IMG/VR virus record: IMGVR_UViG_3300025459_000001
Strand: one strand, 5' to 3'
Length of the DNA: 64,000 bases
Source: an uncultured virus (IMG/VR IMGVR_UViG_3300025459_000001)
Lineage: Duplodnaviria; Heunggongvirae; Uroviricota; Caudoviricetes
Part shown: in pieces, positions 2,203 to 61,188 of the stretch
Layout of the letters: every line of letters begins with the position of its first letter
Numbering within the stretch: position 1 is the stretch's first letter
Program-made: the position numbers and the translations under genes
The notes under the pieces: model-generated
Database searches by the model: none
What the model was told of the DNA's origin: nothing
What the model saw: the letters and a program-made list of their open reading frames with translations, nothing else

Positions 2203-2586
2203 GTGAGCGACGAGTCCCACGTTGTACCGATTAACCTAGCGTCCAAATCAGCCCACAATAAAGAAACCCGGCCTCTGTATAACGAAGAAGGTGAGCAGAT
2301 TGGGATGGCCACCTTGGAATGCGAGATAACCTACTCGCGGGTCATCCAAGCGGGGGAAGACACCTACCTCATGGTGGACGAAAAGAACTGGGATGTAGCG
2401 CGCGGACGGTTTCCCTGGAAGATGACCGCGCGCACCCTCCCTGTGACGGCTCGCAAGTTAGGAATGGCTATGGTGGCCAAAACGGATTACGCTGGCTATG
2501 TTCTGATTGAGATCGGCGAGCATATGTTCGTGGTTCCTGAACGGCACACGGAGGCGCTATGCAGGATGTACCCACAGAACCCATAA
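2203..2586 (+). CDS. hypothetical protein
   Basis: Overlapping start/stop within a + strand operon; protein-like composition. Confidence 0.5.
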   Translation: MSDESHVVPINLASKSAHNKETRPLYNEEGEQIGMATLECEITYSRVIQAGEDTYLMVDEKNWDVARGRFPWKMTARTLPVTARKLGMAMVAKTDYAGYVLIEIGEHMFVVPERHTEALCRMYPQNP

Positions 2587-2954
2587 CAATTAGATTCTTG
2601 GGGTTCGCATCGAAAAAGAACTTCTGGCGTCCCGGCAAAAACGGTAGAGGAATCTACCTCGACAAGAAGACTCGCGCCTTAGTCGAGCGTATGGAGCTTC
2701 AGGTGCCCGCTGAAGTTAGAGACTTGCGATTGGAAAGCCCTGACATGATCTGGACCTTCCGGTATACCAACGGTCACGCTGACCGCGATGGGATCATGGT
2801 CACAGTACTCGATATCCTACAGAAATATGGTGTGCTGGTCAACGATTCGATCACAAGGTGTAATGGTCTGTGGACGGTTCACCCGGCTGAACGTGGGGAG
2901 TACGATGAAGTTGAGGTGACACTGATACCGAGAGAGCCCCGTGTCCCACATTGA
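2559..2954 (+). CDS. RusA-like Holliday junction resolvase
   Basis: SKKN motif and DRDG...LDILQKYGVLVNDS resembling RusA DxDN...D.L...G...DD. Confidence 0.6.
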   Translation: MQDVPTEPITIRFLGFASKKNFWRPGKNGRGIYLDKKTRALVERMELQVPAEVRDLRLESPDMIWTFRYTNGHADRDGIMVTVLDILQKYGVLVNDSITRCNGLWTVHPAERGEYDEVEVTLIPREPRVPH

Positions 2955-3187
2955 GCACATCCGAGACAAGTTAGCTAATCTGGAGGTCCGCCAACTACTG
3001 CGGGACGCCTCACGCCGACAGGCTAGCATCTTAAGGAAAGCCTACCGTTTCCGCAAGCTGGGAAGATTCGACCACCTCTTACATTTACAATGTGGGATGA
3101 CCTTGTGCTACGACAGGGCAGGAAAGTTGTGTTGGGCAAGCGCACCCAGAATCACTCAGGATAACAATCAGCAGTGCGAGATGGAGT

Positions 3188-3373
3188 TCATCTCCGACTC
3201 CGACCCCGCTTTGCCTTCCGTTTCTTCACCACAGAGTTAGCCGCTCTTATGGCGGCACCCTCTGAGTACCCGCGTTCCAACATGCTGTTCGAAACGTGGC
3301 TCCATTGTCTCTGGGCCTTTCGGCTTTTCGCTTTTTTCGTGTGGCGCTTGGCATCACTTGGTTTCCAGGGCAT
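3188..3373 (-). CDS. small basic phage protein
   Basis: MPWKPSDAKRHTKKA...AIRAANSVVKK; RBS GGAGGA upstream; last gene of the minus-strand arm. Confidence 0.65.
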   Translation of the reverse strand: MPWKPSDAKRHTKKAKSRKAQRQWSHVSNSMLERGYSEGAAIRAANSVVKKRKAKRGRSRR

Positions 3374-3382
3374 AATATCCTC

Positions 3383-5308
3383 CTAATTGTGACCTGTTAG
3401 GGGCGGATTTTGGATTACGGTGCCGTTCAAAAACTTGGTCCACTTCCGAATTCCGGCCTTATTGCGCCCGAGTGGTTCTACTTCAATGCTCTTGATCTTG
3501 CCGCCGTATCGAGAAAGCATTTTAGAGACATTCGCTGGGGCTTGGTCTGAATCGTATTCGAGGGCACTGATCGTTTTCCCGCTGGCGTCTTTGGCTGTCA
3601 GTCGTATGCCCTCAAGGTTTACTTCGGTGGCCTTCTCGAATATAGATCGCACGGCTTGATGTAGTTCCTGTTGTTCTGACGTCTCGGGAGCGCTGGAGCC
3701 CTTCTGCGCCCCCTCAGTTTTCGGAGGGGCGGTCGCCGATTCGGGCGGAAGATTGGCTAGCGCTCCCGAATCCTTTTCACGTCCTTTTGGAGTCCCACGT
3801 TGTACTTCAGGTGGTGGGGAAGGCTTTTCTCCTGCCTTTAATTTCGCTTCCAGTTCCGCGATCCGCTTATTGTTAGCCGCAATCTTGTCCTCGGGGGATT
3901 CCTTTGCGACAACGGGTTCAGGAGGAAGGGAGGGCTTCCCTGCGGGTTCCCCCGTTTTTGGCATTTCCACCACATTCTGCTTGTGTGGAGGATTTTCCAG
4001 CACACCCATTTTCTCGGGACTCGGGACTGGCAAGACAGGCTCTTTCCCTTGGCTTGCCATGGCCTCCCTACGCACTCCAGAAACCTGAGAACGGCCTATG
4101 GATTCCGGGGTGGGCTCAGGTGGCGGGGCCGCAGTCGAAGCAGTGGCGGGCTTCTGTGGGCCAGCAGCGGGGGTTTCCTGGGAAACCGGGGTAGGAATAG
4201 ACTTCGGGGATGGCTTGGCGGGTGGTTTGGTCTCCTGTACTCGCTCAGGTGGCTTCGCTAAAGGCTTTCCCGCTGCTGGGGTCTTGGCTTGTCGAGCTTC
4301 AAACTTCTTCAGGGCGTCATCAAGAAGTCGTTGCTTTTCCGCTTCGGTGGCGTTGGCGACTTTGTCCCAGGCGGTTTGGGCGGGTGACAGCTTGGGAGAT
4401 TCAGTCTTGGCCTCTGGAGGGGGTGGGGCGGGCGGACCAACAGGACCTTCTGGCCCCTTCGGAGTTTCCACGGTGGGCTTCGCTTCGACTGGAGGCTTAC
4501 CGGCCTTACCGCCTTTGGTCGCTGCTGCAATTAGGGCTATGTCACCTAAAGCGCGAGCGGCCTGCTTTCCGACTTCACGGTAATTACCAGATTGGAGCGC
4601 ATCTGCCGCCTCTGGAAAAGACTGAATAAAGTCATAACTCTGTGCGCCGATAAAGCCAGTTTTTATCATTTTACCTAGAACGTTTATGGCTTTGGCCGCT
4701 CGCGGAAAATTGGCGAGTTTGGATTCCGGTAGCAGTATCGACCCAATAAGAAAGGCTGCGTTGAGCGGAGATGTCATACTGAGTCCGGTGTCGGCCAGTC
4801 CTTCACCTAACCCCGCCGAGAACTCCTGAACATTCTTAGGCGCTCCAGCTACTTTAGGGATTTCCTGGGCAGCCCAAGCGGCACCTTTCTCAACAGCAGG
4901 CTTGACGACTCCCTGTACTACCTCAGACGGCAGAAACGCCAGCCCTGGGAGTACGGAACCGCCGGTCAACTGGTTCTTGATTGCCGTGCCTACCTCGGAC
5001 AAGGAGGGAAAATGTGCTTTGCCGGATGGTTCAGGCGGACTCTCAGGCTTACCGTTGGCGGATTTCGGGGCACCGTCTGACGGCTCAAGGCCCTTGATAC
5101 TGTACAGGTTGTTAAACCCAGGAACGTGCCCTTGCATGTACTGGGCCCATTGTTGTGGGGTTATTTTACCCGGAGTCTCCTTAAGCATCTGCTTGGTGGC
5201 CTGCCGGTAGACGTCGTACTTCGGGTCACCCGATGTCACAGCCTGTTTCATCTTAGTCGCGAACTCTTCTGCGGTGACTTCGCGAGGTTTCTGGGGCTGA
5301 GGGGTCAT
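3383..5308 (-). CDS. probable internal virion/DNA ejection protein, Pro/Lys/Glu-rich
   Basis: 641 aa; position after the tail nozzle gene in a podovirus-like order; low complexity. Confidence 0.5.
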   Translation of the reverse strand: MTPQPQKPREVTAEEFATKMKQAVTSGDPKYDVYRQATKQMLKETPGKITPQQWAQYMQGHVPGFNNLYSIKGLEPSDGAPKSANGKPESPPEPSGKAHFPSLSEVGTAIKNQLTGGSVLPGLAFLPSEVVQGVVKPAVEKGAAWAAQEIPKVAGAPKNVQEFSAGLGEGLADTGLSMTSPLNAAFLIGSILLPESKLANFPRAAKAINVLGKMIKTGFIGAQSYDFIQSFPEAADALQSGNYREVGKQAARALGDIALIAAATKGGKAGKPPVEAKPTVETPKGPEGPVGPPAPPPPEAKTESPKLSPAQTAWDKVANATEAEKQRLLDDALKKFEARQAKTPAAGKPLAKPPERVQETKPPAKPSPKSIPTPVSQETPAAGPQKPATASTAAPPPEPTPESIGRSQVSGVRREAMASQGKEPVLPVPSPEKMGVLENPPHKQNVVEMPKTGEPAGKPSLPPEPVVAKESPEDKIAANNKRIAELEAKLKAGEKPSPPPEVQRGTPKGREKDSGALANLPPESATAPPKTEGAQKGSSAPETSEQQELHQAVRSIFEKATEVNLEGIRLTAKDASGKTISALEYDSDQAPANVSKMLSRYGGKIKSIEVEPLGRNKAGIRKWTKFLNGTVIQNPPLTGHN

Positions 5309-11176: not shown

Positions 11177-11803
11177 TTAACCCCCAGTCCCACGTTGTAC
11201 TCGCCAGTCCTCCCTAGTCAGGTAGGACATGACGGCGTCGGCAGGAACTCCATGGTACGATGCGAACTTTGGCAGAGGGGGTAAAAAAGTGAAGCCGAGC
11301 CGTCTCCCAAAAATCAGGGTGGCCCGGTTGTCAGCGAGGCTCAAGCCGTACAGGATATCAAGGTTTTCCGTTTCAAACGAATACTCAAGGGTCTTCTCGA
11401 TCAACCGCAAAGGAATCCGGTGGTGCATGTATTCCCTGAATATTACGAACCCGCAATCGGCTTTCCGTCCTCCAGAACCTCCCCGGATGCTCCAGAGCCA
11501 CGCGAGACCGGCCAAGCGTGCTTCATGGGCATCGTTGCGGATAAAACAGCCGAGATAGCGGTTGTCCTTGGCTTCAAGCCACCCGATGAACTCTTTGAGA
11601 GTGGGGACGTGGCTGAAGAAGACTGTCTCCAGAAGGTTATCGGCCTCCATCTGAATATAGGCTCTGGCCATCAAACTCTGAGAAATGTCGCTGGCTACGA
11701 ACACCTCTGGGTGCGCTTTTATCTGGAGTACGCTGGTAGCGGTAGCCATCACTTTCAACTTTAGTCTTATGTCGTTAAAAACACAATCTAAGCCCTCAAC
11801 CAA
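11177..11803 (-). CDS. GNAT-fold acetyltransferase-like protein of podovirus tail modules
   Basis: LYGLSLADNRAT..FGRRLGF GNAT motif B-like; position before ejection genes. Confidence 0.65.
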   Translation of the reverse strand: MVEGLDCVFNDIRLKLKVMATATSVLQIKAHPEVFVASDISQSLMARAYIQMEADNLLETVFFSHVPTLKEFIGWLEAKDNRYLGCFIRNDAHEARLAGLAWLWSIRGGSGGRKADCGFVIFREYMHHRIPLRLIEKTLEYSFETENLDILYGLSLADNRATLIFGRRLGFTFLPPLPKFASYHGVPADAVMSYLTREDWRVQRGTGG

Positions 11804-12891: not shown

Positions 12892-15800
12892 CAGCCGCCG
12901 CCTTCCCCGAGAGTCATCATTTCGCTGAAGGTGATTTGTTTGTAAACCGCGTGCCGGTCAGATCCCAAGTATAGAAGTTCCAAGCCGCTCCCTTCCGCAA
13001 AAAACATAAACGGCGATGAGGAGTCCAACTGGACCCGGTAAGTCTTAGACTTGTTCAACCCGCTCCCCCATACGCTAGGGAGAAGGAATCTCTCCTCTGA
13101 ACGGGTAGCGTGGGCAGGAAGTGTTACTTCAAACGTGCCAGTGTCAGAAATAAGCGTCAGCGTCACCGGCGCCGGACACAGGTACTTCCACCATCCCTGC
13201 TTGACCAATTTCCAAAACTTCCAGCCACATGTCTGCTCGTAGCTATCCCAGTGGGTGACGGCGGCTGGCTCTTTGACGTGATCGAGACTCCAGTCCCAGA
13301 GTTTGAAGGCCCCATTCGGGATAATCACTAATCGCCACTGCGTCCCACTCAGATTCGATGGGCAGGCTACCACAACCCTACGGTTGTCATAGGTGGTGTT
13401 CACTGGGAAGGTGGCGACTGTCCCAGCTTCGCCAGTTTGTAGATTGACTCCGGCTAAAGTTCCTTCTGTGTCTACGGTTAGAATTAGATTTCTCGCCAAC
13501 TTTAAGAACGGCCACCCGAACGAGTTCCACGGCGTACACAGTATGCTGTCAGGAGGATCTGGGGAGTTCTCCTGGTTGAATGGTGCCCAACGGGAAACTC
13601 CCCAATTATAGACTTGGGATAGTCCTCCACTACCAGCCGTAACAAGCAGTCTCCACATCTTTCCGAAGACGTCCACCGGAAGCGCGTAATTGACCTTTCG
13701 ACTTGTAACTACACCAGTGTGGGAGAAGGAGAAGACCGAGCCATTCTCGTTTTCAAGAACGATATTCGCGGCGATCCCTCCCGTGTTCGCATCCAACCAA
13801 ACCCAAGTAGGGTTCTTGTCATCCGGGGTTTCAGCGTCACGCCACGGTAACCACAATATCTGGGTCGGAGGGGCTTGAGATGTTCCCTCTGTAAACGGCG
13901 TCCATCTTGCTAGTCCCCAATCGAACACCTGTGCTTTACCCTTCGTTCCCGGCGTTAGAATAAGCCGCCACATCTTACCGAACGTGTCTGCTGGTATCGG
14001 GTAAGAGTTCTTGCGGTTGTCCACCGTTCCCGTATGCGTAAATGGGAACACATCTCCAGTCTCGTTTACCAACTGACATGCACAAGCGATGTTAGCCGTG
14101 TCCATATCAACCCAGACCCAAGTCGGGTTTTCCTCGACTGGTCCCTGTGCTGGCTTCCATGGGGTTGAGTAGATGATGTCCGCAGGATAGTCCGTCTTGT
14201 CGAAGGTGTACTTCCACTGCTTGAAACCGATTGGCAGAGGGGTTGTGATTGGATACAGACGGATCAATTTGGCAATCGTATCCACAGCGATGGGGAAGGT
14301 ACACTTGCTTCTGTCGCCAGTCAGCGTAAACTGTCCCACGTTGGACACCAGCGTTCCACCACCGATTCCATTGATGATGTCGAGTTGCAGGACTACGTTA
14401 GTGCCCGTAGCGGCAAGCGACAGATCCCATTCGACCGTCACTGTCCTCAAATACTTGTCGTAACCATGCCCGAGATCATCCCAATCTCCAGAGTGAACCA
14501 CGTCGGCCTTGTCCGCCTTCTGGAAAGAGAACCGATGGCTGAACAATTGAAACATCCCGCCGTCAGTGGCAATCGAGGTTTGAGTGGTGTCCACAAATAA
14601 CCGCCACTTTTTACCGATCAGTCCAGGGGGTATGGTGATGTTTCTGCGCCGGTCTTTTTCTGTAGTGGTTACAGTGAAGGTCCAGGGATTTCCACCAATC
14701 ATCACATTCGCTCCGTCTGCCTGGACGTTAACGGTGACCGGCCAGTTATTCGTATTCACTTCCAGGTCAATCTGGTTGGCGTATTTGTCGTACTCGTATC
14801 CGTCGTCCTCCCAAGGGGTATAGGACACAATGTCGGGCGGGTAATCCTCCTTTTCAAAGTCCACATTCAAGATGCGGAAGAAGAACGTGGAGGCCGTATT
14901 GAGAGTGAACCCACCCTCAGGACCCCCAAGAGCAATGGGCCGCAGGCGAACTTCCTTGACAATGGTTCCATCGGCTATCGGGAACGTCTTCAATGTCCGA
15001 CCAGCTCCGCTGATGTCGGCAGTGAGGAGGGTAAACGACTGGACAGCTTCTCCGTACAGGAAAGAATCGCGTCCCGTGAGGACGTCCATGACGATGGTTT
15101 GGTCAATTCCCCGAATAACGTCAAACTCCACCGTCATTTGGTAAAGCCGCTTGTCGTACTTATAGCCAAGGTTCATCCAATCAGTAGCCCCGCTGGTCGT
15201 CTGGATGCCAACGTCGTAATACTTCATGACCAGCGAATAGAAGGTCATTCTGGCCGGATAAGCTTGACCATAGATTCGATACGAAAAGGCCCTCGCTTCC
15301 TGACCATAAACCGTGGGTGGAGTTCCAGCAACCATGCCGGGGAGAAGCGAAATTAACTTTCTTCCAACAGTGCTGCCCGATTGGTAGTCGCTGAGGGGAA
15401 GAGTCACCGTGATCGTATTCACTGCCACATCGGAATAGTTCAACAGGATGTCGATACTTAGAGTCGCGGTTGCAGTATTCCCGGTGACATCGAGATCAAG
15501 CAAGGCTTCCTGTAGTACCTTCTGTGATTCAGGAGAGCCGAAATCAAACCACGGCAGAGAGACCGAGAATGCGATGGGGCCTCCCTGCGTCGTTGGATCG
15601 GTCGTAAATGAGTCGCTAGTGAAGTTATAGTACGCGACGGTGGGCGGAAATCCAGGAACAACAGTGACTGGCACGATGGTTTCCTGGTCGTGCATCACGA
15701 ACGATACGTTATCCAGCCCGGTCACTGACTCGATCATCATGCCAGTATCGGGTTCCGTGTAAGCGACAAAATCCAGATTGAATCCAACACTTACAAACTC

Positions 15801-22900: not shown

Positions 22901-23947
22901 CGGGCCGCTGGGCTGGCTGGTGATGTAGCCCGTTCCCGAGTGAACGGTGTCGTAAACGATGATCGGCTGATTAGCCGAAAACAACGTCGTGAAGGAGGTC
23001 CCTGTTCCGGTGACGGTAGCACCGCTTGTTGCCACCGTCCCGAGTCCGGCGAGCGCCGCTTGTCCGCCGACAATTGCCGAGGTGAAACTCGTAGGAGAGC
23101 TGGAGGTTTTGCCGCCCTGTCCGGGGCACCCCGAGGTGGTGTCGTTTCCGCTGGCGTCCAAACATAGCGGGGTGCCTGCCGACCCCGACACTGTTCCCGC
23201 CATTTGAACTTTATTCGTATACGTTCCCTGCGAGTTACCATTGAGCAAATTGGCAAGTCCGCTCGCCGCAGTGGTACCACCCGTGCCGCCCTGGCCTACG
23301 AGTAACGGAAAACTAAGGACGAAGCACCCCGAGGTGGTGTCGTTTCCGCTGGCGTCCAAACATAGCGGGGTGCCTGCCGACCCCGACACTGTTCCCGCCA
23401 TTTGAACTTTATTCGTATACGTTCCCTGCGAGTTACCGCTCAAGAGATTTGCGAGTCCTGTGGCGGCGGTAGTCCCCCCGGTTCCTCCCTGAGCAAGGGT
23501 TAACGGAAAACTAAATGCCCCTACTCCGGTTGAAAAGAAGGGGGTTCGCAGGGCCGTGTAAGTCACCACGGCATTGCCAGTGATTGCAATCTGGATGTAC
23601 TTGTGGTTCCCGTTTCCGTAGGCGATAGGCGGGCTGCTCGATTGAGTTATCTGTGAGGCCGTCCCATAACTCGTCCATGGACCCGAACAGGATACATCGG
23701 AGTAATTGAGGGCAACGGTCCAAGTGCCAGACCCGGAGACAACGCCAACAGAGTGGTAATAGTTGGAGCGTGAAATTGCCGACACATTGGACACCACACC
23801 AGGGCATCCAGGGATTTCTCCCGCCCAGCTAGAACTGATTCCGTAGATGACCGTTTGCAGGACAGCCTGTTGCACGGACTGTGCGAACAGAAGTCCCACG
23901 TGGGACGCCGCGAGGAGGGATATCAGGGCAAGTTTGCGCATCGGCAC
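19901..23947 (-). CDS. tailspike-like protein with pectate-lyase-like beta-helix and N-terminal signal peptide
   Basis: DNSAAVAAAC...IYMPDGDY beta-helix entry motif; fibre motif LAQGGTGGTTAA; leader MRKLALISLLAASHVGLLFAQ. Confidence 0.7.
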   Translation of the reverse strand: MPMRKLALISLLAASHVGLLFAQSVQQAVLQTVIYGISSSWAGEIPGCPGVVSNVSAISRSNYYHSVGVVSGSGTWTVALNYSDVSCSGPWTSYGTASQITQSSSPPIAYGNGNHKYIQIAITGNAVVTYTALRTPFFSTGVGAFSFPLTLAQGGTGGTTAATGLANLLSGNSQGTYTNKVQMAGTVSGSAGTPLCLDASGNDTTSGCFVLSFPLLVGQGGTGGTTAASGLANLLNGNSQGTYTNKVQMAGTVSGSAGTPLCLDASGNDTTSGCPGQGGKTSSSPTSFTSAIVGGQAALAGLGTVATSGATVTGTGTSFTTLFSANQPIIVYDTVHSGTGYITSQPSGPDELGIQSIGSIVTFFGGATTTGLSKGDVICSTIYGGTLNNAPGQCWTIYQVVDTYHVTTQHTMYPQVGAGQYACNIVVAANVGYVTCNSPHGLASGANVTIAGTGNSSLNGTYSITNEPAFFTNDPTSSYNFEITTSGVANGFYASDSITLSGVTPTPHLSCSITSNVATCTSLQWPGFTVGDSVYYVNGSTGTCADMNGAHTITGVGTGDYPKTFTFATSGVSNGTCADTAVLIGAGWTYQHHPQRSVVQSVTNNTTLTVSPSFSPDFPAGATYQYAPDNSAAVAAACSLGTSIYMPDGDYHIYTPASAPFHIATCTGFSQEWAMSGGARFVLDNQQNADGFYFEGGTRAKFTNWTVDGLWVWTTRAVVTSEAPLAFQIQDAYYPTVTNFRSTGGTGNVLISQFNDHPLIQGVQCLNVAGCLLSNGDVDLVASDLQVTNSSDESISIHNAPGGIDQERGATVSNFTVKNGENIDTTQLSNVAWSNGLLEGMVDDPVRQAPYNPTNSSISYSNIIIRGGGMAGPQCRWLGCTANFYLGSNPFVQMTNVQILSTNPQSMMGGIVDWAAIGNTSTLQLSNVTISGGPSYGVNAYVNRLEVSNSYFENLDDIGLSETSSGLVSVNGLTLRDVARKWGAGAGSFYGGPNYALALGVTTEFHVRNLTILDDQSTPTGYKIFEYGIGTIGEFDNLTSTITNGALAWNMNSEGNPGKIFVHSYQPQTYSQISQLTANGQIGNGSKMYCSNCTIGACSTSGTGSDVTWVAGAAVCGGGSGGGGGGGSVNVNGSAVTSPNFNGTTPAAASGYQNATFQVSGSNVSAEIPVSTTTDLREFKCLSQLGVAGCNFSFAAGTNQVQFNPHAGLTNNIFGQVDFLGAATGTQAAVVFQTQLSNSWTSVTFDLEWLTTATSGAATWYLQLACVPATGASLDPAWDSARSYTSTAQTTASYSNAIGPQTLTLPSACVAGTPGPMLFGRIYRNGSDTLGSSATASLLSARLTIVHP
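23126..23437. repeat. direct repeat, 114 nt identical, 198-nt period
   Basis: 23126-23239 equals 23324-23437; encodes duplicated GNSQGTYTNKVQMAGTVSGSAGTPLCLDASGNDTTSGC. Confidence 0.9.
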
Positions 23948-26436: not shown

Positions 26437-26750
26437 AATGGTTATCCTCTTTCCGATGTCCCCAGCGCACGCAAGACGTAAACGGCTTCGTCGGCCATGT
26501 AGTGCTTAGCCATAAATGCTGCCAGTCGATTGGCTATCGTCCCGATGCTTTCCGAAGCGACTCCATTTACATAGGGGATTCTCTTTATCCCTCGGCGATT
26601 AGGCATAGCCACCAATTGGGACATGGCCCGACTGTCGGTACGGATGTAGCGGTACTTTTCGTTCTCGGCAACCGTTTCCGATTTACACTCCGCGCTTCGT
26701 CCCACGTTGAACCTCCTAACTTGATTGTACCGAAACGCACGACACGGCTC

Positions 26751-28217: not shown

Positions 28218-28503
28218 TGAATACTCCTAAGCGAAGCGTATCACTAATTTACAGGGAAATGAAGGGGCCCAACGTGGGACTATAAGCCTTTGTCGAACAT
28301 CGCTGGGTTTACTTTCCTGTCTCCAGAAGGCTTATGCCATGGTCCATCAGGTGAGCGGTCCTTTAATCTCCGCCATGCTCCACACACGTAACACCACATC
28401 GCTAAACCTCCAAGGATAATCCAGCAGTTCCTTTCGTGACGACAATACTGCCTTCTCCTGCAAGCCATATTATCCCCTGCCAAACGCGCGTACCCCTTGA
28501 AGA

Positions 28504-28804: not shown

Positions 28805-29170
28805 TTAGATGCTCCTGCCGATGCCCGGGATAACCCCACTGAACTCCGGCAAGACCTTTCCGTCTCCTTCCATCATTGCCCACAAATGCAAACAGTGCGC
28901 ATGGATGTTGACGTAATTCTCCTCTGGCGGGAAGACCGCGTAAGCATAGAGGTCACTGCCTATAAAAGCGTTCTTGATCTTCACGGTGTCATCGTGGTTT
29001 GGTGTCCAAGACTTGCGAGAATAAGACACATGTAGCCATTGGCGACCATCCTCTTTCTCTTCGCAGTCCACCAGGACCCGTAACCCGCCATCTTTCTCGC
29101 GAACGGCATAGCCGTCTCCCCACTTCTGGATGACCTCCCATCCTTTTGGGCACTCGAATTTCCAGTCCAA
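28805..29170 (-). CDS. conserved phage hypothetical protein (WLHVS...YVNIH.HCLHLW family)
   Basis: Recognisable His-rich motif; probable TTG start. Confidence 0.65.
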   Translation of the reverse strand: MDWKFECPKGWEVIQKWGDGYAVREKDGGLRVLVDCEEKEDGRQWLHVSYSRKSWTPNHDDTVKIKNAFIGSDLYAYAVFPPEENYVNIHAHCLHLWAMMEGDGKVLPEFSGVIPGIGRSI

Positions 29171-29181
29171 CGTGGGACCCC

Positions 29182-31016: not shown

Positions 31017-33220
31017 CTCAGCCATCCTCCGGGAGGCTTGGCGTGATCCCACTTCTTCTTGAAGATCTCCATGTTCCGGTCGTACCTTCGACGAAACTCT
31101 TCTTGGTCATAATACGAGCGGAAGGTTTGGCCTTGAAGGTGTTGGGCTCTAACGGGTTTAACGGCGATTGTAAACCCGGCGATTCTGGCTCGCGCCAGAA
31201 AATCGTCATCGAGAAATCCGTATCCTCCGTTGAACTCCTCGTCATAAACGTATCCGCCGACAGCCTCGTAGACGTTTCTCGGGATGCACCACAGCGAGGT
31301 TTCCAGCTTCATCTGGCCAGTCAATACGAAGGTCTCAGGTGCCCACGAAGTAACCGTTTCTGGGACTGCCATTGTCTCCAGCCAATCGGGATCTTCGATC
31401 ATAACGTCATTGCACACGATGAAAATAAACTGCCCTTGCGCTTTTTCGAAGGCTAAATTGATGGCGGTGGCCTCTCCTTTCTGATCGGCAACGATGATCT
31501 CGATCCCTTCGGGGGAGTTCTGTTTGATTAACCCAAGGCTTCGGGCCGACATCTCCCTGACTTTACCTTCTGGATCGTAATCCACAAACACTACAGAGTA
31601 CTTCGGTCTGTCGTCCACTGCTACCACCCCTTCCCCACATACTGGGTCAAATCCATACTCGATTGGGTATCGGACAATTGCCTTCAAATGCGCTTCCCTC
31701 AGCCACGAGTCGATCACTTCAGGAGGACAGTGATGGTGCTCACCATATCCCGATGGTGCTATGGAGTCGTCTGGATTCGGATGCCGCGTGTCATTCGGAA
31801 CAGTGAAGACAATCCTGCCACCGGGTTTCAGCAGTTCCTTGAACTTCAAGAGTTGCTTGGGAACCGCGTCCGTGGGAAAGTGCTCCAGAATCTCTGTCGC
31901 GGCCACAACATCGAACGAATGCCGCTGAAACGGTCGGGGGAGGTCGCGGGCGTCTGAAATGATGTCCGCTGCGTTGGGTTTACAAAGGTGCTTGTCGAAC
32001 TCGTACTTGTCAAGATTAACGGCACCGATCTTCCGCATTTCTCCGCCATCGTCGCAACACCCTACATTCAGAATCTTCCCCTGACCCTTAGAGTGCTTGA
32101 GCGCAAAGATGAACTGTGCGCCGGTGTTTTTGTGATCCTCGACACCATACATCCATGTCTCGATGAAGTCGATGTACCGCTCCCAGTTGAAGGTAGATCT
32201 TGCCCACGGCATCATGTCGGCGCGGATCTGCTCTTGCAGTCCCACGTTGGACGCCAGCTTGTAAATCTCCCCAACATACCGGGCCTGCGTTAACGGATCT
32301 TCTGGATCACCAAAGATCCAGATTCCATGAAGGCAATAGTCTCCCGCTGCCCATGTTGGGGAAATGATCGGGATGGCACCCAGCGCCATTTCTTCGATAC
32401 CAGAAATAAACCCCGTTTCCGTAAACAGCGTCGGGTGAGCCGACATCCCACAGGACAATTTCTCCTGGTATAGCCGCTTCTGCCCGATCCTGCCCAGATG
32501 AGTGACCCCCGGTTGTTTCATCTCCCGCATGGCCTCATCGTAAATCAGCTTCCACTGATTGGTCGGCGGGTTCGAGGCGATGATCTTCTCCATGTTGTCG
32601 AACCCGTAGGCAATGACCAATTCAAGGTCATGCACCCACTGACGCGCTTTACGGAAGATCTTCAACAGGGGGAGGAGTCCGCGATCAGGAGAACTGGCAA
32701 AGATGATCTTCCTTGGATTTCTCGTGGGCACGCCTTCGGCCTCGATCTCCCGTATCAAGTCGTTTCGGATGCCATTGAACCCCTGGCACACCTTCTTGGC
32801 GTATTTGGGGTACTCTTTCATCGTGAAACTGGCATGAGTCGGGCAGAGAGCGATAAAGCGGTCTAATTTCTCCCACCGTTCCTCGGTAAGGTGGGGGTAG
32901 AACACATCTTGGCTAACCAATGACAAGACCTGTCCGGGATGCTCAAGGGGGAAATTATCGAGGACCTCTGGGCACCGAGACACGAACCACCATCCAGGCC
33001 GGGTGTAATCGGCCTCAGAAAGGGGTAGCCAGCGCGTCCCTAGCCACTCAGGGGGCGTATCCTGCCGCAGGGGGGCGTAGACCACCACCTCGTGCCCGCG
33101 CCTCGCCAAGCGCCTAGAAACCTCCACAACGGCGGTCTCCGAACCGCCTATTCCGGGGTCCTCAGGGTTGCGCATATCCCAAGGCTCGAAAGTGACGGGG
33201 CTGATGATCGTTACCTGCAT
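31013..33220 (-). CDS. multidomain glycosyltransferase: GT-B (GT4-like) + SAM methyltransferase + GT-A
   Basis: GIGGSETAV, SSPDRGL, ETGFISGIEEMALG; ILNVGC...FDVV..EILEH..LLKPGG; CNDV...YDEEF..GFLDDDF. Confidence 0.85.
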   Translation of the reverse strand: MQVTIISPVTFEPWDMRNPEDPGIGGSETAVVEVSRRLARRGHEVVVYAPLRQDTPPEWLGTRWLPLSEADYTRPGWWFVSRCPEVLDNFPLEHPGQVLSLVSQDVFYPHLTEERWEKLDRFIALCPTHASFTMKEYPKYAKKVCQGFNGIRNDLIREIEAEGVPTRNPRKIIFASSPDRGLLPLLKIFRKARQWVHDLELVIAYGFDNMEKIIASNPPTNQWKLIYDEAMREMKQPGVTHLGRIGQKRLYQEKLSCGMSAHPTLFTETGFISGIEEMALGAIPIISPTWAAGDYCLHGIWIFGDPEDPLTQARYVGEIYKLASNVGLQEQIRADMMPWARSTFNWERYIDFIETWMYGVEDHKNTGAQFIFALKHSKGQGKILNVGCCDDGGEMRKIGAVNLDKYEFDKHLCKPNAADIISDARDLPRPFQRHSFDVVAATEILEHFPTDAVPKQLLKFKELLKPGGRIVFTVPNDTRHPNPDDSIAPSGYGEHHHCPPEVIDSWLREAHLKAIVRYPIEYGFDPVCGEGVVAVDDRPKYSVVFVDYDPEGKVREMSARSLGLIKQNSPEGIEIIVADQKGEATAINLAFEKAQGQFIFIVCNDVMIEDPDWLETMAVPETVTSWAPETFVLTGQMKLETSLWCIPRNVYEAVGGYVYDEEFNGGYGFLDDDFLARARIAGFTIAVKPVRAQHLQGQTFRSYYDQEEFRRRYDRNMEIFKKKWDHAKPPGGWLR

Positions 33221-41275: not shown

Positions 41276-41350
41276 ACTGCCCTTCCTAAGCCGTCCAACG
41301 TTGGACTAATTTAATGGTATTGCCTTGCACAATCACGGTCAAGCAATACC

Positions 41351-47475: not shown

Positions 47476-47645
47476 TGGCGGTAGTCCCACGTGGGACTCA
47501 ACTCAGCGATAGTTCGAGCATCGTGCCACCGCGCTCTCCGTTCGGATGCTTCCACTGACCAAGATCGCGTACCACAACCATGTACCCCCAACCCCCTCTT
47601 TGTACGTGAAGGTAGAGAGACATCAAGGTGAACGGGGTCCAGGCG

Positions 47646-49650: not shown

Positions 49651-49788
49651 AGAGGAGCCTCCTGCGCTTATCCTAAGCTATTTCTTTGGATTCGGCAACG
49701 TTACCTACACTGTTCAGCCTACATCAAGTCCCACGTTGGGCCCATGTTCGCTTAAGGAGCATTCCATAATCTACCACCAAATGGCTAA

Positions 49789-50340: not shown

Positions 50341-50378
50341 AGGATTTGCGAAGCCCCCGGTAGATCGTTTCACTGTCG

Positions 50379-51242: not shown

Positions 51243-51310
51243 GGCCTCAGGCTCCTCTGTGTATTGATCCTCACAGATTTCCTGTGGGTGTGTCGAGTAT
51301 ATTTGTGCCG

Positions 51311-51772: not shown

Positions 51773-52267
51773 CTACTCCTGTCCCACGTGGGACTCCTGA
51801 ACTGGCCGTAAGGCCATCTCCAAGCTTTCTATTGCCGCCTTAGTTGCTGCGGCTACCTCGCACAGATCAGCAAGGCTTTCTCGTGGTATATTAATTGATC
51901 GGAACTCAGCCAAACGGATGGCTGGATATATCTGACCAGTAAACGGTCCTTCGTGACCTCTCTTGAAGCCAGTGAACCCGTATTTAACAGTCCTGCCAAG
52001 GGTTCTATTGGCGATCATGCGCCTTACCAATTCATTAGCCGCTGGGATCAGGATAGAGTCTTCTTGTTTCCGACGAGCAGCCTCATTTTTATCAATGAGG
52101 TAGAACTCAACGTCTATGGTCTTGCAGGAGGCTACCGCCTCAATATCCGCTCCTTCAAGGTTTTCAGTCGCACAGTCTGATCCGTACAACGTTATGTGGC
52201 CTTCGTTCCTGCGAAGAAATTCAAGTGCGAGTAACCTGTATTTGTCCTTGTCGAGTTCGAACATCAC
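51773..52267 (-). CDS. hypothetical protein
   Basis: Coupled ORF. Confidence 0.5.
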   Translation of the reverse strand: MMFELDKDKYRLLALEFLRRNEGHITLYGSDCATENLEGADIEAVASCKTIDVEFYLIDKNEAARRKQEDSILIPAANELVRRMIANRTLGRTVKYGFTGFKRGHEGPFTGQIYPAIRLAEFRSINIPRESLADLCEVAAATKAAIESLEMALRPVQESHVGQE

Positions 52268-55130: not shown

Positions 55131-55634
55131 CTATTCCTCGACCGGCTTGGTCTTCTCGTACTCCACGGGGGTGGCAACCAGATCCACCACTCTGCGAGCT
55201 GGTCCTAACTGGCGGGTTTCCTGTTCGTCAGCCAACATGCGGAAGATAGCGTCCGGTGTAGCCAGCCCCTTGGAACCTGAGGCGCTGATATTGGCTGTCT
55301 GATTATTGTTGTTCTGTTGGACGTTGACAACCGTGCCCGCCTTGCCACCTTCTACTAAGCCGTACATCTGGGCCACAAGTCTCATCGCCGCCACATCTCC
55401 CGCTTCTACGCTAATCTCCAAGTTATGGAATAACTTAAATAGGTGCTTGATGGCGTGAAAGGCCTGGATTTTCCCTTGAATGGAACGGCTGGAGAGGTTC
55501 TTGGCGGTGACCTTGATGCCAGCGAATTTCTCGGGAATAACCAGTGGGGGAGCGGGGTTCAACGTGGGACTGCTGGCAACCTGCTTGATCTGGGTTGCGA
55601 TGGGGGTCACTTTCGGCTTCTTTTTGTCCGCCAC
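55131..55634 (-). CDS. probable terminase small subunit
   Basis: Directly upstream of terL; GDVAAMRL...VNVQQNNN pattern. Confidence 0.55.
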   Translation of the reverse strand: MADKKKPKVTPIATQIKQVASSPTLNPAPPLVIPEKFAGIKVTAKNLSSRSIQGKIQAFHAIKHLFKLFHNLEISVEAGDVAAMRLVAQMYGLVEGGKAGTVVNVQQNNNNQTANISASGSKGLATPDAIFRMLADEQETRQLGPARRVVDLVATPVEYEKTKPVEE

Positions 55635-57332: not shown

Positions 57333-58301
57333 CTAACCTCCTGGCCTGGGGGGAACCAGCCGTGAATTGGCCACACTCTGATCCCTCAAGGATGACTGCA
57401 AAATCGAATCCTCATGCTTAGAAGCTCTAGGGTCGGATATGGACCGAAAACCTTTTTGCATCTGCCCTTCTTGCTTTGTAAGCCGGTCGCCCATCGGAAG
57501 GTTGTCAGTGTCGAAATTTCCAATCTCCCTTAATGGAGGGGAATCACCGATCTCCGCCGGAGACATGTACTTCGGGCGGGGCTTGTACATTGCCTTCAAT
57601 TGCTCCAGGATTTCATCGAGCGCCGCGCTAATGTCCTGCTTTTCGTCGTAGACGCTGAAGGTCTTGCGAGCTACCAATAGGCCAAGAGATGTAGGCTGTC
57701 CTTCAACAGCTCCCCCGCCAGCACTATCCGACACGGCATCGTGCTTGTAGGTCAAATGAACCAGTCCCATCCCGGCCTGGTTGAGGACATTCTTGCGCGC
57801 CCGTAAAGTCAACTTTCCTTCCAGCCCCCTCGGCTCGAATTCGATGTAGTCCGGTGAATTATCGTTAATAAGAGCAATCAGATCCGACACGTCCCACTTA
57901 GGGTTTTCCGTTAGGTTTGATGGCCTTTTTCCTGTGACTGCCCGCCTGCGGACGGTTCCCGCCGTGAATACCTTACGCTTTATATCGGCGGGCTTATGCT
58001 CGTCGAATCCCGGATCTCCCGGCATTAAAATTACGCTCTTGGCCTCTCCGGGGTCCGTAGCAACGTCTTTATGGAGCACCACGGCTCCCAGTGGCGGGGG
58101 AGGGTGAACGTCCAACGTGGGACTCGGCACGCCCGGTGGAACCGTGGCAATACCGGATTCCTCCGTGTTCATGTCATAGAGCATTTCCACCGTGTCCACC
58201 ACGTCCTCGGTGAGTAGAATAGAGTCCTGGGTCTTCTTCAGCCCACGGTCGAGGGTCTTCTGAATGTAGCGGGCGAACTTATCCTTGAGTGCTTGGTCCA
58301 T
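57333..58301 (-). CDS. hypothetical protein (start MDQALKD)
   Basis: Long protein-like ORF. Confidence 0.55.
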   Translation of the reverse strand: MDQALKDKFARYIQKTLDRGLKKTQDSILLTEDVVDTVEMLYDMNTEESGIATVPPGVPSPTLDVHPPPPLGAVVLHKDVATDPGEAKSVILMPGDPGFDEHKPADIKRKVFTAGTVRRRAVTGKRPSNLTENPKWDVSDLIALINDNSPDYIEFEPRGLEGKLTLRARKNVLNQAGMGLVHLTYKHDAVSDSAGGGAVEGQPTSLGLLVARKTFSVYDEKQDISAALDEILEQLKAMYKPRPKYMSPAEIGDSPPLREIGNFDTDNLPMGDRLTKQEGQMQKGFRSISDPRASKHEDSILQSSLRDQSVANSRLVPPRPGG

Positions 58302-58612: not shown

Positions 58613-58782
58613 CGTCTCGACGAGATACCGGAGAAACTCTCCGATGTACGGAGGCAGATTCGGCGGGTCCATGTAGCGGAAGTCACCGGGTTGGGCGATT
58701 GGGTTCATCAGAATTTTTTGCGCCGGTTTAGCGGGGTGTAAAGCATCCCACACCGCTTCGGCCACCACAGCACTCTTGCCCC
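58613..58782 (-). repeat. duplicated portal-gene segment
   Basis: 58613-58735 is identical to 48204-48326 (123 nt), with about 45 nt of diverged continuation. Confidence 0.95.
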
Positions 58783-58818
58783 AGGGGCTATCTTGCTCCA
58801 CCGCCTTCTGGACGGTGG

Positions 58819-59033: not shown

Positions 59034-59576
59034 TCAGACTTGATCCTTCATTCTTGCGTTTGGCTCGTATACTAAAGTCTTCTTGGCCCGGTCCATGGCT
59101 TCTGCCCAATCTACCCCGTAACGTCGCCGGATTCCTTCCGCCCGTTCGCGGAGTTCCGCCTCCTGATCGGTCATGTCCGTGTAGCCGCTTCCATCTCCAC
59201 CCAGAATCTTAGTCAACCAGTTGGTCTGGCTCCTGGTGAACTTCTCGAAGGAGAGGGACAGGGAATCCAGGGCGGCGAGTTGCTTGGATGCTTGATCTGT
59301 CCGCTCGACACGCCCGCCAACAAGACCATCACGAACTAAAGCGAGATTGTCGTTGATCGTTGAAAGATGCGTTCGGGTTATGCCCGCCTGCTCCTGGATG
59401 GCTGCGTTCACTTTGCAAATCTGGTCGCGGATCTCGGTGAACTCCAGCGATGGCTGGTACACCGTGGGACTGCGCATGACCCTCACGGTGGAGAGTACCA
59501 TCTTGTAGACGGCCACTACCACCGCGATCGCCACGATCCCGTAGCCAATCCACGACATCAAGACTTGCAGCGTCAT
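59034..59576 (-). CDS. N-terminal membrane-anchored coiled-coil protein
   Basis: TM segment IGYGIVAIAVVVAVY then heptads. Confidence 0.5.
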   Translation of the reverse strand: MTLQVLMSWIGYGIVAIAVVVAVYKMVLSTVRVMRSPTVYQPSLEFTEIRDQICKVNAAIQEQAGITRTHLSTINDNLALVRDGLVGGRVERTDQASKQLAALDSLSLSFEKFTRSQTNWLTKILGGDGSGYTDMTDQEAELRERAEGIRRRYGVDWAEAMDRAKKTLVYEPNARMKDQV

Positions 59577-60310
59577 TTCGCAACCTTCTTTTTGTGGCTT
59601 TTCCTGACCTCGACGAAGTAACCTTGGCTCAATAGAAAGTCCGTGCCCGACTTCACATACTGTTGTACGCGGGCCTTGGAGATATCCAGCGCTTGAGTGT
59701 ACTTCATCCCGATTAAATAAGCCTTGGTTTCCGGCCACTCCGAACCCTGCAAGAACATAATGGCGGCATTGATCGCAACCTTCAATCGAGTCCGTTTACG
59801 ATGTGACCAGTCTTCGGGAGGTTCCGGCGCGCGTTTATAGATACGCGGGTCCGATGCCGTCATACGGCCTTCGCGGATCGCCTTCCTCAGGTCGCGAGGG
59901 GTCATTCCAGGATGTCCTCGGCTCTTTCCAGCCATTCGGGAATCGGTTTGCCGTGGTAGATGAACTCCAAGAAACGAACCGCCATTTCATTGCACGACAG
60001 TTCGCTTTGGATGTGGACAACGTCGAACACGCTCTCGATGGAGGCGAACCGCTCGATGGCGATGCCGATCTTGTTTGGTCCTTGGCATCCTACTTCATAG
60101 CAGAGCCCCAAGGTTTTGATGATCTCAAGGGTGAGTTGGAATTTGGTCATTGCTTTGGATGCTCCTTCCAATACTTCGCCGTTGCTATAATGGTGTACCC
60201 ATCTTGGTCTTCGACATTTTCCCAGCGCCCTGTCGAGATCAAGAACTTCTTCGCCTCATCGTAGGTCATCCCCATTGCTATTTCGAAATCGCTGGGCCTT
60301 TGCTCGGGCT

Positions 60311-61129
60311 TCATCCCAACACCCCTACCTTCCCATCGCCTTCATACTTTAAGATGATCTCGTCTTCACTGATTTCCTTGACCACCACATTTGTTTCCAG
60401 TTGTACCCTGCCCGACTTCCCTACGACTTTAAGAGCGGCAATCATCCCCGGTTTTGCTGACCACTGCCACGCTGCCTTCGGCCCCTCCATCAACTTCACA
60501 ACTTCGGCTTCGTCAACCACGTCGTTGGTCAAGTAGTCCTGAATTTGGCGCAAAATCATGGCTTTGGTGGGCCGATCGTCGGGCTCCTCGCGTTCGCGGG
60601 CCGTCACTCCCCTAGTCGAGGCTTCCCGCTTGGCCTTCCGTTCCGCCACTTTCTTTTTCTTGGCTTGCTTGGTTTCGCCTCTTCGAATCTCGCCGACCAA
60701 CGATAAGGAGACGCCAATGTACTTGGCGATCTGGGTGTCTTTCCACTCCCCAATCTTCTCGTCGGTTACCGCCAATTCAACGGCGCGTCTTTTGTCGGCA
60801 TTGGTCAGCCGTGCGCCGTGATGGGAGTTTTCCAATAGGGCGTACTTCAGTGCATCGGAGGCGTCCCCATCGTGTATGACGGCGGGGATTTCCAGCTTGT
60901 TTTCCTGCCGGTAGGCTTCGATGCGATGGAAGCCGTCCGCGACACGGTAGGAGTTGTCTCCGTTACGGAAGATATGAATGGGGTCCATATTCCCGTGCTC
61001 CTGAATTAAGGAGCGGTACTGATGGACCAATCTGGCGTCGAGGGTGATGCGAATTTGGACGGAATTAGTTTCGTCAATTTGCTCGATGGGAACCAGCTTA
61101 ACGGTTTTCTTGGTGGCAGAGGGTGTCAT
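60311..61129 (-). CDS. ParB-like protein (ParBc domain + HTH)
   Basis: VQIR...DPIHIF...VADGFHRIEAY; ENSHHG..LT.ADKRRA; HTH KDTQIAKYIGVSLSLVGEIR. Confidence 0.8.
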   Translation of the reverse strand: MTPSATKKTVKLVPIEQIDETNSVQIRITLDARLVHQYRSLIQEHGNMDPIHIFRNGDNSYRVADGFHRIEAYRQENKLEIPAVIHDGDASDALKYALLENSHHGARLTNADKRRAVELAVTDEKIGEWKDTQIAKYIGVSLSLVGEIRRGETKQAKKKKVAERKAKREASTRGVTAREREEPDDRPTKAMILRQIQDYLTNDVVDEAEVVKLMEGPKAAWQWSAKPGMIAALKVVGKSGRVQLETNVVVKEISEDEIILKYEGDGKVGVLG

Positions 61130-61136
61130 TGTCTTT

Positions 61137-61188
61137 GTCCCACGTTGTACTCGATCTATAGGGTACGCGGAGTCAAGAGTGAAGTCAA
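61137..61188 (-). promoter_or_regulatory. parB-like promoter plus 14-bp operator-like site
   Basis: TTGACT(61183-88)-17-TACCCT(61160-65); GTCCCACGTTGTAC at 61137-61150 before the ATG. Confidence 0.55.

Follow-up and report, generated by a model that had tools for sequence, protein, structure and literature searches.

Across the 64,000-nucleotide stretch of DNA analysed here, from an uncultured virus of the Caudoviricetes (IMG/VR record IMGVR_UViG_3300025459_000001; "the window" denotes this whole stretch), a 14-bp quasi-palindromic word recurs at 16 positions, and at 27 in the complete phage genome of which the window is part. The array is selected at the level of the DNA, and its sites are, with high probability, docking sites of a dimeric DNA-binding protein: the word comprises inverted half-sites, GTCCMA and TKGGAC, 2 bp apart, an arrangement that a symmetric dimer would be expected to read. 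The most likely binder is a 272-aa ParB/Noc/KorB-fold protein that the phage itself encodes (60311..61129, minus strand) and that appears to be partner-less. We give this identification about an even chance, and the explanation as a whole, binder identity included, is just as evenly poised. In any case, the analysis yields a concrete and testable pair, the 272-aa protein and the 14-bp word, together with three candidate promoter operators.

The word, its placement and its conservation

The window corresponds to positions 14-63593 of virus record G004, from which it departs by 52 mismatches and a 420-bp length change in a repeat-rich gene. G004 is 96,503 bp long, has 127-bp direct terminal repeats and is rated 100% complete; the window is part of this 96.5-kb phage. 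The strict pattern GTCCCACGTKGNRC gives 18 strand-matches in the window, which reduce to 15 distinct positions (2214, 3792, 11187, 14333, 23893, 26699, 28267, 29165, 32239, 47484, 49728, 51781, 55557, 58110 and 61137), three perfect palindromes being counted on both strands; in 100 dinucleotide-preserving shuffles of the window the mean count was 0.00. The 9-mer GTCCCACGT occurs 18 times against a shuffle mean of 0.63 (largest 3), and the perfect palindrome GTCCCACGTGGGAC, with up to 3 mismatches allowed, is matched 19 times against a shuffle mean of 3.7. Sixteen of these 19 have at most 2 mismatches, with GTCCAACGTTGGAC at 41293 as the 16th window site; the 3-mismatch matches at 26793, 43297 and 59457 were discarded as sites because their number is at chance level. 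GTCCCACGTGGGAC itself stands at 23893, 47484 and 51781, and the copy at 41293 is likewise a perfect palindrome, of the form GTCCAACGTTGGAC. An earlier examination of the letters alone (the sequence-only reading) had proposed a 14-bp pattern at these 16 coordinates, had called these four copies perfect palindromes and had put the chance expectation of its 11-mer core well under one, and on each point the counts agree with it, 15 of the coordinates being recovered by GTCCCACGTKGNRC and 41293 by GTCCAACGTTGGAC. In the complete genome there are 23 strict-pattern sites and 27 within 2 mismatches of the perfect palindrome, of which 7 are perfect and 20 imperfect; 16 of the 27 fall in the window. The commonest imperfect word is GTCCCACGTTGTAC.

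Alignment of all 27 sites by their better half shows positions 1-9 as GTCC(C in 26, A in 1)ACGT, otherwise invariant. The partner half is degenerate yet far from random (T18/G9, G27, G19/T6/A2, A25/G2, C24/T3). This combination, one half essentially invariant and its partner degenerate but clearly non-random, has the look of a dimer-type site. The flanks are not conserved, except for a preference for A before the word (20 of 27) and T after it (13 of 27). Relative to the coding strand the better half lies on the same side at 9 sites and on the opposite side at 10, while 8 are symmetric, so that there is no orientation bias. Over the 96.5 kb, neighbouring sites are on average 3.5 kb apart, for a density of about 1 per 3.6 kb, and the coefficient of variation (CV) of their spacing is 0.76, a value that corresponds to a fraction of 0.105 against random positions (not significant) and 0.038 against random gene borders (marginal).

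Placement with respect to genes was judged on open reading frames (ORFs) from a crude longest-ORF greedy caller, and some ORF starts are therefore uncertain. For 19 of the 27 sites an ORF border is at most 60 nt away (6.2 expected; p ≤ 2e-4), and 11 lie outside any ORF (2.5 expected; p ≤ 2e-4), which bears out the earlier remark that many copies sit near start or stop codons. Of the 16 sites inside ORFs, few remain under synonymous-codon shuffling, a background that the sequence-only reading had named as a check: over 100 shuffles a mean of only 3.07, and never more than 6, survived. The same procedure on the related phage genome G016 left a mean of 5.97 and a maximum of 10 of its 23 in-ORF sites. 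Moreover, the word is translated as S-N/H-V-G in genes of 1682, 1348 and 735 aa and as P-T-L-D, in another frame, in a gene of 352 aa, so that the use of different reading frames is also as described before; in the 735-aa gene it replaces the RQPE or KDPE of the orthologues amid an otherwise conserved stretch. The array is thus selected as DNA, and the in-gene sites measure how far the phage bends protein sequence to retain a DNA word.

Full-length homologues of the 272-aa protein, at 39-61% identity, are found on long viral contigs, and every distinct lineage member whose DNA was examined carries an array built on the half-site GTCCMA. The forms differ: G014 has 11 sites of GTCC(A/C)ACGT(G/T)GGAC; the complete 94.6-kb genome G016 has 29 of GTCCAAC(A/G)TTGGAC (its form of the word being GTCCAACATTGGAC); G017 has 15 of GT(A/C/T)CAACATTG(G/T)AC; G013 has 4 of the 16-bp form GTCCAACATGTTGGAC in 18.8 kb; L746 has 3-4 of the GTCCAACGTTGGAC type in 8.2 kb; and L744 has 3 of the GTCCAAGATTGGAC type in 18 kb. 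The two central bases are GA or TA in L744 and only CG or CA/TG in G016, and since the centre differs in this way among the relatives' words, it behaves as a spacer. Only 31 of the 131 ORFs of the window phage's full genome have a homologue in G016, and both genomes carry about 1 site per 3.3-3.6 kb. Several places hold a site in both the window phage and G014: the ParB-fold gene and a 152-aa gene each have one upstream, the 352-aa and 1682-aa genes each contain one, another follows the portal gene, and the 1348-aa gene has one at its 5′ end. In G016 the sites are spaced more evenly than expected by chance: none of 5000 random and none of 3000 random-border placements attained its CV of 0.55. 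Judged by these sequence comparisons, the array is conserved in a deep phage lineage, and its members constitute natural specificity variants, with other centre bases and with a 2-bp or 4-bp spacer. Among cultured phages, a nucleotide search gave matches of at most 105 nt only, and a protein search gave 9 records at 30-33% identity.

Two explanations that dispense with a docking protein can be weighed on this evidence. The first is that the word acts as an RNA hairpin (in termination, processing or stability) or is a selfish repeat resembling repetitive extragenic palindromic (REP) sequences or miniature inverted-repeat transposable elements (MITEs). Perfect copies do fold into a 5-bp stem, and bacterial copies of the word, described below, include REP-like clusters and A-run/T-run settings in the genome G022 and a single repeated element in two Myxococcota genomes. 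In the phage, however, the flanks are not conserved save for the A before and T after the word, and sites occur in both orientations, inside genes and at orthologous places. At least 6 of the 16 window sites leave the word halves unpaired and none has z < -2 against shuffles, on which count a hairpin or terminator was rejected; a REP- or MITE-like repeat was rejected on the unique phage flanks and the 16 of 27 sites that lie inside ORFs. Rfam recognised no known RNA family at the sites (its only matches being two group I introns elsewhere), and no tRNA gene was found. The idea is largely refuted, and we regard it as the least probable of those considered. Scarcely better placed is a second possibility, that the word is a target of DNA chemistry, i.e., a modification, nicking or restriction-related motif. 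It draws on the presence in the phage of glycosyltransferase/methyltransferase-like, nucleoside deoxyribosyltransferase and PNKP-phosphatase genes, and on the centre of the G016 word, which varies only between CG and CA/TG. Against it stand the GA or TA centre of L744, which is spacer behaviour, the enrichment of sites at gene borders and on promoters, and the failure of gene scans of the phage to recognise a complete DNA methyltransferase or nickase. Restriction and modification targets are, besides, usually avoided or neutral. A docking site for a dimeric protein remains the reading that we prefer by far.

The individual window sites illustrate the variety of settings (the sites at 41293 and 61137 are treated below with their promoter-like elements). 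At the left end, the GTCCCACGTTGTAC copy at 2214..2227 follows the GTG start of ORF 2203-2586 (plus strand) by 12 nt and the stop of ORF 1985-2206 by 8 nt, and a second GTCCCACGTTGTAC copy, at 3792..3805, is within ORF 3383-5308 (minus strand), about 410 nt from its stop. The site at 11187..11200 is 14-27 nt upstream of the ATG (11173) of ORF 10553-11173 (minus strand) and in the last codons of ORF 11177-11803. Within the 1682-aa ORF 12891-17939 (minus strand) the word at 14333..14346 is read V-S-N-V-G-Q; here G014 has a copy with one mismatch and G016 none. The 1348-aa ORF contains the perfect palindrome at 23893..23906 in its signal-peptide-like N-terminus, where it is read S-H-V-G, and the G014 site is at the same place, while in the G016 orthologue the site is 9 nt upstream of the start and not in the N-terminus. 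Two intergenic sites follow: that at 26699..26712 contains the GTG start of ORF 26442-26705 (minus strand), with AGGAGG ahead of the start, and that at 28267..28280 abuts the stop of ORF 28280-28483 (minus strand) and is 50-63 nt upstream of the ATG at 28217. At 29165..29178 the word lies 4 nt past the stop of the GT2-like ORF 29182-29883 (minus strand), and an in-frame TTG within it is a possible start of a DUF7694 gene. The copy in the 735-aa GT4/methyltransferase ORF, at 32239..32252, is read S-N-V-G where G014 has R-Q-P-E and G017 K-D-P-E.

In the morphogenesis region, the perfect palindrome at 47484..47497 follows the portal stop (47646) at a distance of about 150 nt, and G014 has a site directly after its portal gene. 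The site at 49728..49741 is intergenic: it follows the stop of a Clp_N gene (49789) by 48 nt, and the portal start is 214 nt downstream of it. The perfect palindrome at 51781..51794 is directly upstream of AGGAG-N6-GTG (51769), the start of the conserved 152-aa gene, and the G014 site is 15 nt upstream of the orthologue. The site at 55557..55570 is 64-77 nt inside ORF 55131-55634 (minus strand), the gene immediately upstream of the large terminase gene. Finally, the copy at 58110..58123 occupies a gappy, variable linker of the conserved 352-aa ORF, where it is read x-P-T-L-D, and G014 has its site at the same place.

The candidate reader and the sites at putative promoters

The 272-aa protein matches Pfam ParB_N and the PHROG family "ParB-like partition protein". 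A profile of 19 family members, run against the PDB, recovers Myxococcus xanthus ParB, Noc and Caulobacter ParB, some over positions 4-151 and thus including the helix-turn-helix. The AlphaFold model (mean pLDDT, the predicted local distance difference test score, 76.6) has as its top Foldseek matches M. xanthus ParB 7bnk, Noc 7nfu/7ol9, Caulobacter ParB 7bm8/6t1f and KorB 8qa9, over up to 227 aligned columns that span the N-domain and the DNA-binding domain. The protein can accordingly be described as an N-domain, a helix-turn-helix, a basic linker and a C-terminal dimerisation domain. Dimerisation through the C-terminal domain is predicted by a homodimer model with a score of 0.76 (best control 0.00), an interface at residues 186-272, at least 73% of contacts in common between runs and pLDDT of at least 71; the mark for such scores is reached by 20 of 30 proteins solved as pairs and by 1 of 23 solved as single chains. 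ParB is known to dimerise through its C-terminal domain, and since this is the known architecture, the score may partly reflect likeness to solved ParB dimers. The sequence-only reading had pointed to a ParB-like protein at 60311-61129, and that part of it stands, with the DNA-binding domain and the predicted C-terminal dimer added.

It is the fold with its DNA-binding domain, together with the predicted dimer, that makes this protein the best candidate. The gene heads a block (ParB-fold gene, 234-aa gene, 352-aa gene, terminase) that is kept in all lineage members, and no other gene common to array-bearing members encodes a recognisable DNA-binding domain; the 234-aa and 352-aa neighbours gave no usable lead in the Protein Atlas. 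No partner was recognised: Pfam scans of 70 + 54 ORFs gave no ParA/CbiA family, the motif KGGxGK[ST] is present in 0 of 131 ORFs, and the ParA-binding motif [LFI]G[KR]G[LFI] was not found in the 272-aa protein. No relative of the family was found in representative bacterial genomes. Only one site lies beside the ParB-fold gene, the rest being dispersed. Adjacent to that gene is a TnpB gene (OrfB_IS605 plus Cas12f-like TNB; 61918-63024, minus strand), whose bacterial relatives reach at most 51% identity over many phyla and are uninformative on the host.

The placement of a few sites suggests what a bound protein might do. TTGACW-N16-18-TAnnnT elements are scarce in the complete genome, only 15 being present, and 3 of the 27 sites are centred 14-22 nt past the -10 of such an element, i.e., on the start point (random mean 0.46, p = 0.012). 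These three belong to the ParB-fold gene (site 61137), the gene starting at 41275 (site 41293) and a recT-exo operon outside the window; in G014, 2 of 11 sites are placed likewise, at the ParB-fold gene and the recT operon. The perfect palindrome GTCCAACGTTGGAC at 41293..41306 is 18-31 nt upstream of the ATG at 41275 and begins 7 nt after the -10-like hexamer of a promoter-like TTGACC-N17-TACCAT (41314..41342, minus strand; a pattern match only). At 61137..61150 the word precedes the ParB-fold gene's ATG by 8-21 nt; it follows, at a distance of 9 nt, the -10-like hexamer of TTGACT-N17-TACCCT (61160..61188, minus strand), again a pattern match only and too weak for the sigma-70 scan. The arrangement, TTGACT-N17-TAnnnT followed by the word, is identical in G014 and L740, so that in three lineages a site lies on what would be the ParB-fold gene's own promoter. 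In L741 the word is further downstream, about 40 nt upstream of the homologue, and a TTGACT or TTGACA box precedes the homologue in 7 of 9 lineage members, not being seen in G017 and L746. A protein bound at the three start points would repress by occlusion. The other sites, about 24 and mostly at gene borders in long co-directional operons, may serve as roadblocks or loading points for control or organisation of the whole genome.

A further lead comes from the recognition helix. In dereplicated loci around family members, with helix classes defined post hoc and densities given per 10 kb, the 44 loci with an S-H-x-x-[VI] helix have NNAACGTTNN palindromes at 1.33, against 0.45-0.49 in loci with another helix or no homologue; the 7 loci with an SPQLV helix have NNAAATTTNN palindromes at 0.96, against 0.12-0.49 elsewhere; and the 15 loci with an S-x-[ST]-L-[VI] helix have the window-type word at 1.05, against 0-0.04 elsewhere. 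Helix class and palindrome class thus appear to covary across loci, which we take as a lead from sequence and not as a test. As a separate observation, many distant-homologue phage contigs (loci L112-L175 and L659-L738), in which the homologue adjoins a DEAH helicase, carry dense arrays of other palindromes, e.g., TGGCAACGTTGCCA, TGGAAACGTTTCCA, TGGTAACGTTACCA, CCCATAACGTTATGGG, GAAACGGCCGTTTC and GTTAAATTTAAC. A search from TGGCAACGTTGCCA returned, among the matches listed, four multi-copy records, which are 7-26% complete fragments with no ParB_N, and a DnaB query intended to supply a control set matched only the window phage itself.

Several results weigh against assigning the word to this protein or a promoter role to the sites, and the bacterial copies considered in the next section belong with them. 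Shared descent confounds the covariation of helix and palindrome; L746 carries the same word with another recognition helix (STGFIANVRAG), and L125, L136, L139, L152, L155 and L164 have an "array" helix and no array within 6-14 kb. Of 80 loci fetched via the neighbouring helicase, 58 had a ParB-like hit and 22 had none, and an array was detected in 6 of the former and 4 of the latter, i.e., no enrichment, by a crude and insensitive detector (at least 3 copies of one quasi-palindromic 12-mer) on which the window's own locus scores only 3. With distant family members included, just 3 of 29 loci have a site upstream of the homologue. In the complete genome, 24 of the 27 sites have no recognisable adjacent promoter; in G016, G013 and L744 a TTGAC box stands upstream of the homologue and no word is there; and the 16.5 kb scanned for sigma-70-type matches gave 9 against a shuffle mean of 9.9, no excess. 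As for the chemistry of the fold, the family keeps Q25 and R27 (the Q-x-R of box I), and has G66 and R69 without exception, but DGFHR stands in the place of the GERR box, with the hydrolysis Glu of M. xanthus ParB aligned with Phe and the first Arg with His. The change in this box II speaks against nucleotide hydrolysis. Because of these two replacements a cytidine triphosphate (CTP) switch is doubtful, and nucleoside triphosphate-gated sliding from the sites is, in our view, improbable.

The same weaknesses lend some colour to the notion that another phage-encoded dimeric protein, e.g., a small repressor, reads the word, while the ParB-fold protein serves packaging, DNA modification or the like. 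Most phage ORFs have no Pfam or PHROG family, the ParB-like family came out of the association tests with weak or negative results, and phage ParB-like proteins can, as described in a preprint, activate thymine dioxygenases (bioRxiv 10.1101/2025.08.14.668559). The dioxygenase-linked ParBs described there have no DNA-binding domain, however, and Pfam scans of the phage gave no dioxygenase family. The genes common to all array-bearing members are few (packaging and morphogenesis genes, the ParB-fold gene and two neighbours of unknown fold), and a recognisable DNA-binding domain is confined to the ParB-fold protein. We consider a different phage reader rather unlikely, and the 272-aa protein the better candidate.

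The word on bacterial chromosomes, and the rest of the phage genome

The word is not confined to this phage lineage. Two 16-letter extensions of it match 45 and 87 loci in representative genomes, and the perfect 14-mer GTCCCACGTGGGAC is present in 21 copies in the Armatimonadetes metagenome-assembled genome (MAG) G027 (4.4 Mb, G+C fraction 0.55) and in 20 in the Vulcanimicrobiota MAG G022 (6.9 Mb), the expectation in both being well below 1. Two Myxococcota-type MAGs have 9 copies each, the other genomes counted have at most 5, and reverse-word controls gave 0-2. A single repeated element contains the copies in two Myxococcota MAGs (the part concerning G026 rests on an unpublished genome). The sites in G027 have unique flanks and fall within housekeeping genes (e.g., alr, obg, plsX, proB and guaA) or in the spaces between them, two of the sites being directly ahead of a Shine-Dalgarno sequence and ATG, as in the phage; in G022 many copies are in REP-like clusters or between A-runs and T-runs. 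The canonical parS form, GTTTCACGTGAAAC, coexists with the word in the MAGs, and the identity of the word with canonical parS was rejected for that reason. A 16-kb P22-like phage fragment, G010 (L325; G+C fraction 0.485), carries perfect copies at 9396, 10244 and 11057, each about 20 nt upstream of one of three successive leftward genes beside the small terminase gene; it has no ORF in common with the window phage and no ParB_N in its 16 kb.

Because the word is abundant in two MAGs, and in an unrelated phage fragment with no detectable homologue, a host-encoded reader has to be weighed. On this account a site-specific host protein, a chromosome organiser or global regulator, reads the word, and the phage has accumulated host sites to recruit or exploit it; Noc, SlmA and MatP are examples of host chromosome-organising factors. 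The unique flanks of the 21 perfect copies among the G027 housekeeping genes speak for it, as do the 20 perfect copies in G022 and the word ahead of three genes in the unrelated phage fragment. The G+C content of G027 equals that of the phage (0.549 vs 0.548), and besides a canonical parAB G027 has two extra tandem ParB_N paralogues (L445). On the other hand, the tetranucleotide correlation with the two MAGs is just 0.66-0.67, with no background distribution for comparison. G022 has a single ParB_N gene, 175 kb of it gave no tblastn match to phage ORFs at E ≤ 1e-4, and in representative genomes, as noted above, no relative of the phage protein was found. Each variant word of the related phages would need a matching host, and the G016-type 16-mer matched 80 loci, among which no genome is listed more than twice. 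Moreover, the bacterial copies are all perfect palindromes, whereas 20 of the 27 phage copies are imperfect. The sequence-only reading had considered that equal abundance in the host would reduce the word to a host motif; its density is 60-100 times higher in the phage than in the candidate hosts G027 and G022 (1 per 3.6 kb against about 1 per 210-345 kb). A host reader is therefore a minority view for us, somewhat ahead of a second phage protein and well behind the phage's own ParB-fold protein.

That bacterial chromosomes carry the word too prompts one to ask whether hosts and phages share site-specific DNA organisers. One could imagine that a degenerate-pocket, partner-less ParB/KorB-fold protein and about 27 border sites form a single layer of control or organisation over a 96-kb virulent-type genome, with the word also marking candidate host chromosomes in two phyla, in which case either the phage protein engages the host chromosome or the phage borrows an undescribed host site system. 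This larger picture is speculative and we think it unlikely; if true, it would connect the control of phage genomes with the organisation of bacterial chromosomes in a new way.

The remainder of the genome is that of a phage with recognised large terminase, portal, major capsid, SU10-type adaptor, glycosyl/methyl-transferase, RecT, exonuclease and TnpB genes and an O-like initiator with DnaB, in addition to the 272-aa ParB_N protein; Pfam and PHROG gene scans recognised no RNA polymerase, DNA polymerase or integrase. A 10-kb stretch has at least 96% of its words in each of 22 DNA runs labelled peat or wetland metagenome, 19 of which are marked as possible sources, and two RNA-library runs contain small shares of it. 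Two Rfam group I introns (43986-44193 and 44256-44482, both minus strand; 82.2 and 51.8 bits) are located directly upstream of the major-capsid ORF 43034-43990, and the capsid gene is probably split for that reason; an RNA-library contig joins 44218 to 44473, skipping 254 nt, and the joint is not shown by two DNA runs. The terminal repeat (window 1-127) is present a third time within G004 77655-77836, where it is followed directly by a copy of window 1596-1657, a junction that makes the 540-aa ORF 34-1656 look like an insert-bearing duplicate of an internal spot. The 420-bp difference between the window and G001/G004 is in a decapeptide-repeat gene (PF25296; 56475-57266, minus strand), of which a shorter paralogue is at G004 69432-69833. 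A 169-bp piece of the portal gene (48204-48372) is repeated at 58613-58781 with 95% identity, in the 107-aa ORF 58478-58801, and a tandem 191-bp repeat (23126-23316 and 23324-23514, 87% identity) is inside the 1348-aa gene. Between terminase and portal are Clp_N-domain and proteasome-subunit-like genes (49789-51314, minus strand), the Clp_N stretch drawing deep cross-matching contigs from other organisms.

Comparison with known systems

Among bacterial systems, the array invites comparison with ParB-parS and Noc, to which it is alike in the fold of the candidate protein (7bnk, 6t1f, 7ol9) and in the use of a 14-16-bp palindrome. An outer GT..AC and a central CACGTG are even common to the phage word and the parS form GTTTCACGTGAAAC, but the two differ at positions 3-4 and 11-12 and stand side by side in the MAGs. 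Unlike ParABS, the window phage has no recognised ParA or ParA-binding motif, and its sites are dispersed and at gene borders, not near par genes. As a parABS partition system, the ParB/parS-variant idea put forward from the letters alone finds no support, on these grounds and on the DGFHR in place of GERR. The same holds for a stoperator-like network in the strict sense. Cluster A stoperators are described as 20-30 repressor sites of which few are true promoter operators, with a motif that varies between related phages (PMC6550527), and in being genome-wide, rarely at promoters and variable among relatives the sites here are alike. However, stoperators are asymmetric 13-bp sequences, oriented with transcription and bound by the immunity repressor (PMC6550527), whereas the window-phage sites are dyad-symmetric with no orientation bias (9 : 10 : 8), in a phage in which no integrase or immunity repressor was recognised. 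The array belongs neither to the parABS family nor to that of the stoperators.

Orphan ParB-fold proteins are common in phages, and we found no description of their DNA targets in the literature; the main texts searched gave no account of any phage in which a ParB-like protein goes with an array of sites across the genome. A survey of the ParB-CTPase fold covers phages and, in the text available, does not contain the stem "palindrom" (PMC12704722). The phage ParBs described as dioxygenase activators have another architecture than the 272-aa protein (10.1101/2025.08.14.668559).

The closest phage precedent is the array of dyad repeats of the Cluster O mycobacteriophages (Corndog), known since 2015 and left unexplained. 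These comprise 34 copies of a 17-bp dyad repeat of unknown function, about one-third intergenic, one-third near gene 5′ ends and one-third in genes, with no meaningful orientation; the genome encodes a protein with a ParB-like domain, a dimeric binder was predicted, and most sites are not at promoters (PMC4351075). A dyad word in more than 30 copies genome-wide, the similar distribution and the ParB-like gene are the likenesses. The differences are the word itself, its spacing (7-3-7 in Cluster O, 6-2-6 in the window phage) and the host phylum (PMC4351075), as well as the three window-phage sites on promoter start points; moreover, Corndog gp90 is only weakly related to the ParB-fold family, with an hhalign probability of 14.7% over 66 columns.

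Since the likely binder has the ParB/Noc/KorB fold, the system would work like KorB-OB of the IncP plasmid RK2. RK2 has 12 OB sites, about half as many as the window phage has of its word, and it is a plasmid with a different word; here many sites lie in coding sequence, no ParA/IncC was found and no KorA-like partner recognised, and DGFHR stands for GERR. KorB itself is described as a ParB-fold clamp loaded at dispersed palindromic OB operators, which silences promoters up to 1.5 kb away with its partner KorA (PMC11790492). The likeness extends from the protein, with N-domain, DNA-binding domain and C-terminal dimer and with KorB 8qa9 on the Foldseek list, to the DNA, one short palindrome dispersed over a replicon of tens of kilobases, with some copies at promoters and others distant from any (PMC11790492). 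In the window phage 3 of 27 sites are promoter-like and 24 are not. On this analogy, KorB-OB is the closest working model for the array.

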